64,000 bases of DNA from Alphaproteobacteria bacterium (lineage in GTDB: Bacteria > Pseudomonadota > Alphaproteobacteria > JAEULC01), in assembly GCA_020846275.1 (NCBI GenBank), contig JADLEG010000031.1, positions 10,556-74,555 of the forward strand, in the 5' to 3' direction. The translations under genes were made by a program, and so were the position numbers. This document shows, piece by piece, positions 49,985 to 50,232 of the stretch. The notes beneath the pieces were generated by a model. It was not told the DNA's origin. It worked only from the letters and a program-made list of their open reading frames with translations, and made no database searches. Every line of letters begins with the position of its first letter. Positions within the stretch are counted from its first letter, which is position 1.

Positions 49985-50232
49985 TGACTTAACAAAATCT
50001 TGGTTAATCATTCGTTTACGGGCCGAACCTGCCTTTACGAATCAGTTCCGCCGGCGCGGCGACTCTTTCTTCAGGATCGCAGCCCAATGATTTGATATCG
50101 AACCGATTTTGGCAGTTCTTGGTGAATCGGTTTGGTTAACGAACTGCAAATGCAGTTTCACGAATCAGCCGACTTGAGAGGCTCCTTACCAAGTTTAGGT
50201 AAATCTACTAACTTATTGATTTTACAAATATA
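49985..50232. repeat. AT-rich island with two ~50 bp direct repeats and inverted repeats between convergent pckA and polA
   Basis: R1 49998-50045 and R2 50117-50168 share TCTTGGT(T/G)AATC...TT(T/C)ACGAATCAG. Inverted pair AACCGATTTT/GAATCGGTTT. Local GC far below the window average. Confidence 0.5.

Follow-up and report, generated by a model that had tools for sequence, protein, structure and literature searches.

The convergent genes pckA and polA of the alphaproteobacterial DNA analysed here (a stretch of 64 kb, hereafter the window, called W where it is set beside other genomes) are separated by an AT-rich, repeat-bearing gap that is real and consists of a non-coding insertion of unproven function. 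The same island lies at the same place in three related genomes (L081, L082 and L083), in which its conservation is blocky, with indel-free spacing between palindromes, short directional motifs and methylation-type sites. Our tentative reading, which we prefer while rating it as clearly short of probable, is that the island would act at the DNA level, as a platform of short putative recognition sites for proteins, set at constant distances within AT-rich sequence and addressed by regulators of the MucR or CtrA type. From the motifs we infer both the identity of the bound proteins and the effect of their binding.

The two boundary genes and a structure directly behind pckA define the locus as follows:

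48258 to 49865, + strand: pckA (ATP-dependent PEP carboxykinase), the left boundary gene, from its ORF and translation (Pfam PEPCK_ATP, E 1e-221).
49875 to 49898, + strand: perfect 10-bp GC-rich hairpin AGGTCCGCGG/CCGCGGACCT directly 3' of the pckA stop codon, from an inverted-repeat search.
50233 to 53103, − strand: polA (DNA polymerase I), the right boundary gene (Pfam 5_3_exonuc_N, 5_3_exonuc, DNA_pol_A_exo1 and DNA_pol_A).

The PckA start (MQQVG...) is common to the orthologues and the PolA C-terminus (...WAEAH*) is conserved, which leaves 367 bp between the two convergent genes. GC content is 40-51% across 49950-50250 and is lower at positions 50034-50233 than in any other 200-bp segment of the window (42.5% against a window mean of 69.4%, z = -5.8), with five further low-GC spots that each reach at least 49% GC. 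The original prediction of a low-GC island between these genes was thus borne out, while its background figure of about 67% GC for the genome compares with the 69.4% measured over the window. The hairpin at 49875-49898 is probably the pckA terminator and lies on the left side of the spacer, which is rich in GC and not conserved and where the first ~110 columns of the four-island alignment align poorly.

A homologous island was found only in W, L081, L082 and L083, whose PckA proteins are 85-91% identical and whose clade is represented by assemblies GCA_964393375.1, GCA_964409735.1 and GCA_023150455.1; the suggested check for conservation in related genomes therefore found the island kept beyond a single strain. 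The nearest outgroups, L084 and L210 to L214, fill the same junction differently: the pckA and polA stop codons overlap in L084 with no spacer at all, L214 carries a 180-bp GC-rich palindromic spacer, L211 has DarT-DarG, L212 and L213 share an MFS gene and L210 has another low-GC gene. With the island in four genomes and other or no cargo in the outgroups, the distribution indicates a lineage-specific insertion at a variable junction, and the non-coding DNA entered between the two stop codons before a small alphaproteobacterial clade of about genus rank diversified, and has been kept since. A scan of genome contigs for closer relatives returned PckA proteins of at most 68% identity and no synteny, the window's own PolA had no database record, and a search with the PolA C-terminus added a single genome, the island-less L214. 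A likeness between the sequence upstream of DarT in L211 and the left edge of the island amounts to an 8-mer plus scattered matches and was judged to be chance.

Within the island, the following elements were located, those with a directional sequence being given by strand:

49989 to 50007, unstranded: palindrome O1, TTAAC-N9-GTTAA, core of conserved block M2 and overlapping the first R1 copy (motif scan and alignment).
49998 to 50009, + strand: repeat R1 copy a, TCTTGGTTAATC, which contains TGGTTAA, i.e., TTAACCA on the − strand.
50003 to 50018, − strand: near-full candidate CtrA-type site TAAA-N7-TTAAC, with one mismatch to TTAA-N7-TTAAC.
50034 to 50045, + strand: repeat R2 copy a, TTTACGAATCAG, with GANTC at 50039-50043.
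50049 to 50071, + strand: central GC-rich hairpin, CGCCGGCGCGGCG then ACTCTTTCTT, terminator-like and dividing unit A from unit B, with GANTC at 50061-50065.
50086 to 50108, unstranded: conserved block M1, AATGATTTGATATCGAACCGATT (alignment columns 230-252).
50117 to 50128, + strand: repeat R1 copy b, TCTTGGTGAATC, with GANTC at 50124-50128.
50127 to 50172, + strand: long imperfect hairpin or palindrome of unit B, identical with conserved block M4 (alignment and pairing analysis).
50186 to 50232, unstranded: conserved block M5 (TTACCAAGTTTAGGTAAATC), together with an imperfect inverted repeat that is AT-rich and abuts the polA stop codon (alignment columns 337-376).

The two direct repeats of about 50 bp that had been described hold up in their outer parts only. 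Each of the two 12-mer pairs is identical at 11 of 12 positions (R1, TCTTGGTTAATC versus TCTTGGTGAATC; R2, TTTACGAATCAG versus TTCACGAATCAG, the latter at 50157-50168), and their collinear arrangement, which 2 of 2000 random sequences from a first-order Markov model also showed, brackets units A (48 bp) and B (52 bp), whose interiors are unrelated. A true tandem duplication was rejected since profile HMMs of the two units fail to detect each other; an M1-like copy in unit A of L081 is a weak HMM match (E ~4). Neither the 12-mers nor the AT-rich motifs occur a second time elsewhere in the 64-kb window. The inverted pair reported earlier was found as AACCGATT (50101-50108) and AATCGGTT (50125-50132), and the GTTAAC palindrome sits at 50135-50140, adjoined by the palindrome AACTGCAAWTGCAGTT.

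Conservation is concentrated in specific blocks that include TTAAC-N9-GTTAA, the AACTGCAAWTGCAGTT palindrome, TGGTTAA and CGAATC and that can be written as the patterns TTAAC-N9-GTTAA, AACTGCAAWTGMAGTT and TGGTTAA-N20-36-CGAATC. O1 is the sole match to its pattern in 64 kb at up to one mismatch (0.04 expected) and is exact in L081, with one mismatch each in L082 and L083. The best-conserved stretch is M4, in which 14 of 18 columns are invariant across the four genomes and whose hairpin encloses TGGTTAAC (50133-50140), the second palindrome O2 (AACTGCAAATGCAGTT, 50142-50157) and the second R2 copy TTCACGAATCAG with its GANTC at 50162-50166. Invariant columns are clustered along the alignment (up to 14 per 18-column window; permutation p ~1e-4), and stretches of 57 and 153 columns are free of indels in all four genomes at pairwise identities of 43-58%, the longer one adjoining polA and starting at its stop codon; all of these analyses rest on four sequences. 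The island has also stayed AT-rich in genomes with a GC3 of ~0.9. Its overall identity (0.43-0.58) is close to the neutral prediction from 4-fold sites of pckA (0.58-0.73, at GC3 ~0.9), indicating that much of the island is unconstrained.

The motif content would suit regulators of the alphaproteobacterial cell cycle. CtrA is known to recognize a full site TTAA-N7-TTAA and an ungapped TTAACCAT class of motif (PMC6180460). TTAACCA, which resembles the ungapped motif, occurs three times in the 64 kb (0.44 expected), twice in the island and once ~30 nt upstream of the polA start, the latter copy being kept in L081 together with a shared GCTAGACT element; orientation and position of the motif are conserved in the relatives, though it is a short motif in AT-rich DNA. 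The only matches of the window to TTAA-N7-TTAAC at up to one mismatch lie at this locus, one per strand, and the full site has one mismatch in L081, two in L082 and is absent from L083. GANTC, the target of CcrM, occurs at 81 sites in 64 kb with its densest cluster in the island, and in L082 as many as 9 of 14 sites fall within the 333-bp island of a locus that is depleted overall (14 observed versus 24 expected), with no single site common to all four genomes. In Caulobacter and Sinorhizobium, MucR keeps CcrM away from GANTC sites that lie in clusters (PMC5172544). As originally noted, the window itself encodes such a protein (ROS_MUCR at 3309-3839, E 2.5e-46), so that the features expected of a MucR/Ros target, AT-rich DNA with T-A steps and clustered GANTC in a MucR-encoding genome, come together at the island.

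We therefore regard the earlier suggestion of a binding cluster for nucleoid or partition proteins as plausible in its first half, given that the anatomy of palindromes, TTAACCA motifs and a GANTC cluster would fit it, and as excluded for parS. The sites of the proposed platform would be the two sequence-conserved palindromes, two to three TGGTTAA in the same orientation and the local GANTC cluster, which MucR, CtrA and possibly GcrA (reading methylated GANTC) may occupy. A nucleoprotein block could then form where the two convergent transcription units meet and might insulate one unit from the other, govern a short non-coding transcript, or do both. O2 is kept at the level of sequence: its symmetry is broken in L081 and L083 by the same C-to-A change, which is not compensated, as expected of an operator and not of an RNA stem. 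Several points speak against the platform: its protein assignments depend on short motifs that arise easily in AT-rich DNA, binding clusters away from an adjacent promoter are rare and lower its prior, both genes function with zero spacer in L084, and the double changes and better + strand pairing via G-U in the unit-B hairpin favor an RNA.

An unrecognised non-coding RNA locus is a serious rival that we rate only slightly below the platform. It could comprise one or two + strand sRNAs, with unit A ending at the central hairpin and its U-tail and unit B holding the long hairpin, or else a conserved polA 3'UTR or 3'UTR-derived RNA of the − strand; the palindromes and TGGTTAA would then serve as promoter or operator elements or as seed regions. 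In GC-rich genomes, sRNA genes usually show up as conserved, AT-rich orphan intergenic islands where two genes converge. The E. coli sRNA gene spf (Spot 42) is placed likewise, with polA on one side and a convergent gene on the other, and the 153-nt indel-free block begins right at the polA stop codon. The hairpin of unit B comprises 14 pairs with 91% of cells paired and four pairs with double changes (2 of 500 shuffles) and has a covariation score of 0.357 (4 of 500 shuffles), though the same four sequences served to derive its structure, which biases these controls in its favor. In W, this hairpin forms 11 Watson-Crick and three G-U pairs without mismatch on the + strand compared to three mismatches on the − strand, and across the four genomes its nine + strand G-U pairs mostly become mismatches on the − strand. 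It folds at -18.0 kcal/mol in W (z = -2.8), the whole W island reaches z = -2.4 on the + strand, and in W and L083 unit A is followed by a GC hairpin with a T-run that resembles a terminator.

Other observations argue against an RNA. The unannotated small RNA of the original prediction found no support in Rfam, with zero family matches in the island at E<=10, an empty result at gathering score for both the whole window and L081-L083, and only chance miRNA and IRES matches of 11-18 bits in a scan of 49500-50700 at E<=10; tRNA and tmRNA genes were likewise not found. Scans of both strands of all four islands, including a check of aligned positions, gave no sigma-70-type promoter, while the genome uses a textbook TTGACT-N17-CTATAT elsewhere. 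The GC-rich central hairpin is present in all four genomes with differing sequences, but its T-run is missing from L081 and L082 and a − strand U-tail from all four, so that the island lacks the sigma-70-like promoter and the consistently conserved terminator expected of an independent sRNA gene. Consensus folding by RNAalifold gives weak energies (-4 to -9 kcal/mol) and covariation terms of about zero, per-segment fold z-scores disagree between genomes, and the best-conserved elements are kept as sequence, as seen in the uncompensated O2 break. A candidate antisense terminator in the 3' end of polA (50328-50341) exists only in W and is therefore a by-product of coding sequence.

For alternative sigma factors, partial matches were seen. 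The sigma-54 consensus is TGGCAC-N5-TTGC, in which GG and GC are invariant and separated by 10 nt. The sigma-54-like TGGTTAACGAACTGCA keeps GG-N10-GC in W, L081 and L082, with T and A replacing the conserved A and C after GG, but loses GG in L083, and the unit-A copy is without GC. Among readings by eye as sigma-54, ECF-type (AAC-N16-CGAA), RpoH or EcfG sites, none is conserved in all four genomes.

It is unlikely, if still a serious rival and a good deal less far-fetched than the readings below, that the island is decaying horizontally acquired DNA at an insertion-prone junction, with any function limited to the 3' ends or terminator hairpins of pckA and polA and with conserved blocks that are slow-decaying leftovers or weakly selected termination signals. 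The variable pckA-polA junction of L084 and L210-L214, the near-neutral overall identity, the GC-rich hairpins 3' of pckA and in the middle of the island, and an ORF of 25-26 codons that is intact in L082 and L083 and broken in W and L081, as if by erosion, are all compatible with it. Uniform decay would not leave clustered invariant columns (p ~1e-4), and neither the absence of any indel over 153 nt in four genomes nor an AT-richness that persists without amelioration at GC3 ~0.9 sits well with it. Its terminal inverted repeats are weak (12 of 16 positions in W, 9-10 of 16 in the others), and no similarity to plasmids, phages, metagenome contigs or other loci points to a donor: a metagenome pattern scan gave five low-GC chance matches, a 16-mer scan of viral contigs only chance matches and blastn against plasmids and phages only matches at chance level. 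From the original idea of a horizontally acquired remnant we thus retain the acquisition, seen in the small clade and the variable junction, while "remnant" is too weak a word because blocks and spacing are conserved.

A bolder extension, which we rate as quite improbable, would make the island a new clade-specific regulatory element. It might be a methylation-sensitive, cell-cycle-timed insulator of CtrA/MucR/GcrA type that gates read-through between pckA and polA via TTAACCA, palindromic operators and GANTC, or the founder of a new sRNA family at the position of Spot 42 in enterobacteria, immediately 3' of polA and beside a gene of gluconeogenesis.

Very little speaks for a recombination site, be it chromosomal dif or a dif-like or att site of integrative elements, although such a site would explain the variable cargo in the relatives at this convergent gene pair. 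Block M5 beside the polA stop codon is AT-rich with TAA/TTA inverted arms ~7 bp apart and reads GCTGCGAAAAC-AATGTA-TTATAAGATTT in L083, loosely resembling dif, and the direct 12-mer repeats recall arm-type sites. Yet alphaproteobacterial dif sites, 28 bp in an 11-6-11 arrangement, keep the inner arms ATAA-N6-TTATG (Table 1 of PMC2731167), to which the island has no match at up to one mismatch, W being the worst of the four genomes. Core scans, for dif against these published sites, agree with the original prediction in finding neither dif nor parS. A dif site would be expected at the GC-skew switch of the terminus, the position that had been proposed for inspection; over the 64-kb window the skew is flat (within +/-0.05) and keeps its sign at 50 kb. 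In L084 the gene order is unchanged and no spacer exists, so no site is possible there in that genome; no integrase or recombinase stands beside the cargo of L211 or L212, and the island motifs are absent from phage and plasmid collections.

Other classes of DNA element were rejected as well. The 16-bp parS palindrome TGTTNCACGTGAAACA has no match within three mismatches in the whole window; the GTTTCACG motif pointed out earlier does exist (50155-50162) but is only half of parS, and the relatives have GTTTTGCG, GTTTGGCG and GTTTCGAA in its place. A replication origin was rejected because L084 has no spacer, DnaA boxes are missing and the skew is flat, and integron attC (RYYYAAC ... GTTRRRY) does not fit the motifs. 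A MITE or REP family, defined by many dispersed copies and for MITEs also by terminal inverted repeats and a target-site duplication, was rejected as no second copy appeared in the window, in 46 kb of flanking sequence from the relatives or in ~1.8 Mb of further loci.

A small protein on the polA strand is the weakest candidate, exceedingly improbable and for the window largely refuted by the reading frames: the peptide of 25-26 aa (MYYTVYLNLVISMRRRPIRQTAIAVY in L082), made by polA-coupled translation or resembling a type I toxin, would come from intact ATG-initiated ORFs, of 26 aa in L082 and 25 aa in L083, that follow the polA stop codon immediately and share its frame, with several synonymous codon differences between the two (e.g., AGG versus CGC) and the small ORF spfP carried by E. 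coli Spot 42 downstream of polA as a parallel, but W has ATA instead of ATG followed by two in-frame TAG, L081 has no ATG and an in-frame TAA, each of the six frames contains 7-16 stops over the four sequences with pN/pS of 0.76-1.02, differences are nearly flat over codon positions (0.39, 0.30 and 0.42), and the ORF has no Shine-Dalgarno sequence.

If functional, the island would be a clean natural case in which a lineage acquired a non-coding module at a defined step and then kept it under constraint on spacing and motifs, with island-less sister genomes, one of them with overlapping stop codons, as built-in controls. It would then offer a compact test bed for MucR, CtrA and CcrM-type regulators away from promoters or, alternatively, add an sRNA to a poorly studied group of uncultured Alphaproteobacteria. 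If it is only a remnant, the pckA-polA junction would be an insertion hotspot that received a DarTG defence cassette in one relative. Either way, current understanding is not overturned.

Among known systems, dif and parS resemble the island as short AT-rich palindromic elements in non-coding DNA, and the island even holds the half-parS GTTTCACG, but the defining cores of both are missing from it and the half-site is not kept in relatives. REP/BIME elements or MITEs share imperfect palindromes of ~45-50 bp, arranged in tandem where two convergent genes end, whereas the island is single-copy in the sequence scanned, AT-rich instead of GC-rich, and orthologous and stable at one locus over long divergence. 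The spf gene of E. coli (Spot 42, with small ORF spfP) likewise lies in a spacer of ~380 bp between polA and a convergent gene, as a non-coding element right after polA and with carbon metabolism nearby (here pckA); the island differs in having no Rfam Spot_42 match, promoter or terminator and in its non-conserved small ORF, and Spot 42 is a gammaproteobacterial family, which makes this a positional analogy only.

Likenesses also exist to sites of CtrA and MucR. Unlike CtrA sites, the island has neither a partner -10 element at conserved distance nor an origin or promoter context, and its strongest TTAAC pair is inverted (TTAAC-N9-GTTAA) where CtrA uses a direct repeat; like them, it carries two to three TTAACCA in one orientation that are kept in orthologues, an exact TTAACCAT in L081, a one-mismatch full site in unit A and a further TTAACCA in the polA promoter region. 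Most of the MucR-occluded GANTC clusters described by Ardissone et al. 2016 (PMC5172544) are promoters belonging to genes that MucR represses, whereas the island has no adjacent gene to repress and contains specific conserved palindromes that the loose AT preference of MucR does not explain. What it has in common with them is AT-rich DNA in a GC-rich alphaproteobacterial genome, a local GANTC cluster amid genome depletion and an encoded ROS/MucR protein.

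The convergent genes pckA and polA, both Pfam-confirmed, leave a 367-bp spacer between their stop codons, of which the left third (49866 to about 49985) is GC-rich and the remainder is the AT-rich island. Positions 50034-50233 are indeed the lowest-GC 200 bp in 64 kb (42.5% versus a mean of 69.4%, z = -5.8), with no other spot of the window below 49%, which bears out the original prediction. Long antisense ORFs opposite pckA (976 aa, 47040-49970, - strand) and polA (983 aa, 50236-53187, + strand) were rejected as genes, since spurious frames of this kind are common at about 70% GC. 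The features of the spacer, including the blocks conserved in an alignment of the four genomes that carry the island, are as follows.

48258-49865, + strand: pckA, left flank
49875-49898: perfect 10-bp hairpin directly after pckA, in the GC-rich left third
49989-50007: palindrome TTAAC-N9-GTTAA, core of block M2
49998 and 50117: 12-mer repeat pair TCTTGGTKAATC, 11/12 match
50034 and 50157: 12-mer repeat pair TTYACGAATCAG, 11/12 match
50086-50108: block M1
50101-50108 and 50125-50132: inverted pair
50133-50166: block M4, TGGTTAAC, then palindrome AACTGCAAWTGMAGTT and CGAATC
50135-50140: GTTAAC
50155-50162: GTTTCACG
within the island: conserved block ACGAATC
abutting the polA stop: block M5, AGGTAAAT plus an AT-rich inverted repeat
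50233-53103, - strand: polA, right flank

The direct repeats first described as about 50 bp long are real but consist of two 12-mer pairs, which flank units 48 and 52 bp long with unrelated interiors; of 2000 random sequences with matching composition, 2 contained two collinear pairs this good. The inverted pair, GTTAAC and GTTTCACG were all present as originally described, and neither these nor the 12-mers have further copies elsewhere in the 64-kb window.

A PckA search of a species-representative genome collection gave a best match of 68% identity without pckA-polA synteny, while a large protein collection held five closer PckA proteins (83-91% identical), the contigs of which were then compared. 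A homologous, alignable AT-rich island lies at the same place in three other genomes, L081, L082 and L083 (PckA identity 91%, 90% and 85%), settling the question of conservation in relatives that the original prediction had raised. At the L084 locus (83%), the spacer is absent and the two stop codons overlap (GCTTAGTG, 6600-6615), L214 (PolA 84%) carries a GC-rich palindromic spacer of 180 bp (1656-1837), and in L210 (83%) pckA is followed by a different low-GC gene, the start of which lies at 4390-4504 (MNLKYLGDTFDHWKG...). In loci at 73-74% identity, this position is taken by a DarT-DarG toxin-antitoxin/defence pair (L211:5762-7457) or by an MFS transporter gene (L212:5624-6796; L213:2290-3462). 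Because the cargo differs or is absent among relatives, the pckA/polA junction is a variable site and, judging from these loci, an insertion hotspot in this group; by the same comparison, the island entered this site as a lineage-specific insertion in the ancestor of a small clade, which has kept it. Nothing similar that could represent a donor was found in plasmid or phage collections, the matches from a metagenome pattern scan were all at chance level and in low-GC contigs, and about 1.8 Mb of compared sequence held no second copy.

The statement with the best support is that the island is a non-coding, lineage-specific insertion that has been retained, and that its conserved parts resemble sites of protein recognition set at fixed distances. 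The M2 palindrome occurs once in the window (0.04 expected), is exact in L081 and has one mismatch each in L082 and L083, and the only matches of the window to TTAA-N7-TTAAC within one mismatch are at the island locus, one per strand. The repeated TGGTTAA of the island is TTAACCA on the minus strand, the ungapped class of CtrA motif (PMC6180460), which was observed three times in 64 kb versus 0.44 expected. Two of these copies belong to the island, share one orientation and are conserved in relatives; the third is located about 30 nt upstream of the polA start codon (53104-53140, - strand; L081:9800-9840). There, TTAACCA-N12-GCTAGACT is common to the window and L081 and partly kept in L082 (GTTAAC...GGCTAGACT), and this element probably serves as the promoter of polA, arranged like the -35/-10 regions of CtrA-type or Caulobacter-type promoters. 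The divergent HSP20 gene located upstream of polA has a leader (53240-53300) that is highly conserved in five genomes (the window and L081-L084), carries CCATGTTGCTCAACCGGAGGA..TGGCTATG with a putative SD GGAGGA and may be a ROSE-like RNA thermometer, though it matches no Rfam family at gathering score.

GANTC (CcrM) sites number 81 in the window (1.27 per kb) and cluster most densely in the island; in L082, 9 of the 14 sites of a locus that is depleted overall (24 expected) fall inside the 333-bp island. MucR is known to occlude GANTC clusters within the AT-rich DNA that it targets (PMC5172544). As originally noted, the window encodes a ROS_MUCR protein (3309-3839, + strand); it reads ...VCLEDGRKLKMLKRHL..., so that Asp replaces the second of the Cys residues that coordinate zinc in the Ros CX2C motif. 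Such Cys-to-Asp variants have been described for some Mesorhizobium Ros/MucR homologues. We tentatively favor a predicted role of the island at the DNA level, as a platform bound by MucR/CtrA-type factors and by unknown palindrome-binding ones; the identity of these proteins, like any physiological effect, is inferred.

Only slightly less probable is an unrecognised small or 3'UTR RNA. RNAalifold found a single element in common, an imperfect hairpin of 14 pairs around M4 (50127-50172), with 91% of cells paired on the + strand, four pairs changed on both sides (2 of 500 shuffles) and G-U pairs that make it better on the + than on the - strand; this is suggestive only, given that there are four sequences and that the structure itself comes from them. 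Against it, neither the consensus energies (-4 to -9 kcal/mol) nor the per-genome z-scores are impressive, and the inner palindrome of M4 is kept as sequence and broken in L081 and L083 by the same uncompensated C-to-A change, as is seen more typically in protein operators than in RNA stems. A central GC-rich hairpin is present in all four genomes with a different sequence in each, followed by a T-run only in the window and L083 and only on the + strand. No Rfam match was found in the island at E up to 10, nor any at gathering score in the window or L081-L083, and no sigma-70-type promoter was seen in the window's island or conserved across the alignment. A textbook alphaproteobacterial housekeeping promoter, TTGACT-N17-CTATAT, lies at 24376-24410 in a 52%-GC spacer and serves as a reference for the form of promoters in this genome. 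Overall, the RNA evidence is thin, and any transcript would be conjectural.

It is unlikely that the island is a decaying remnant merely supplying 3'-end hairpins. Fourfold-degenerate sites of pckA are 58-73% identical among the island genomes at a GC3 of about 0.9, which means considerable neutral divergence, and the island's identity of 43-58% is roughly the neutral-decay expectation for its own composition; most of it is therefore without strong constraint. However, invariant columns are clustered: one 18-column window contains 14 of them (permutation p about 1e-4), and their longest run has p about 0.007, while the stretches between clusters have zero conserved positions. Stretches of 57 and 153 columns are indel-free in all four genomes, and AT-richness is maintained within strongly GC-biased genomes, features that together argue against uniform decay.

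A dif or att-type site is very improbable: the ATAA-N6-TTATG kept by alphaproteobacterial dif sites (PMC2731167) is unmatched in the island even at one mismatch, GC skew is flat across the 64 kb and L084 lacks any spacer; parS has no match within three mismatches and its half-site is not kept in relatives, so that pattern scans uphold the original failure to match either. Elsewhere, directly after an fpg/mutM-like ORF, two long palindromic elements in tandem with CTAGTG...CACTAG as their boundaries (42990-43180; for example CTAGTGCCCCGAACCCGAAGTTCGCC...GGCGAACTTCGGGTTC..GGGGCACTAG) contain GANTC sites and look like a MITE/REP-type repeat pair. Least probable of all is a small-protein gene, since the 25-26-aa ORF directly after polA, on the same strand and in frame with its stop, is intact only in L082 and L083 (MYYTVYLNLVISMRRRPIRQTAIAVY / MYYKIYLMLVMSERSRQRFETSIAV; L082:2586-2666 / L083:6781-6860, - strand), whereas the window and L081 have lost the ATG and gained in-frame stops; the indel-free blocks have stops in all six frames in several genomes and a pN/pS of 0.76-1.02, and by these coding tests the island is non-coding.

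The island is thus real, conserved and unannotatable with current families. In E. coli, the equivalent spacer between polA and its convergent gene holds spf, encoding Spot 42 with the small ORF spfP, but the island has no sequence or structural similarity to it, and this positional analogy is hence no evidence of homology. On present evidence, the island is a further example of conserved orphan intergenic elements rather than a new kind of system.
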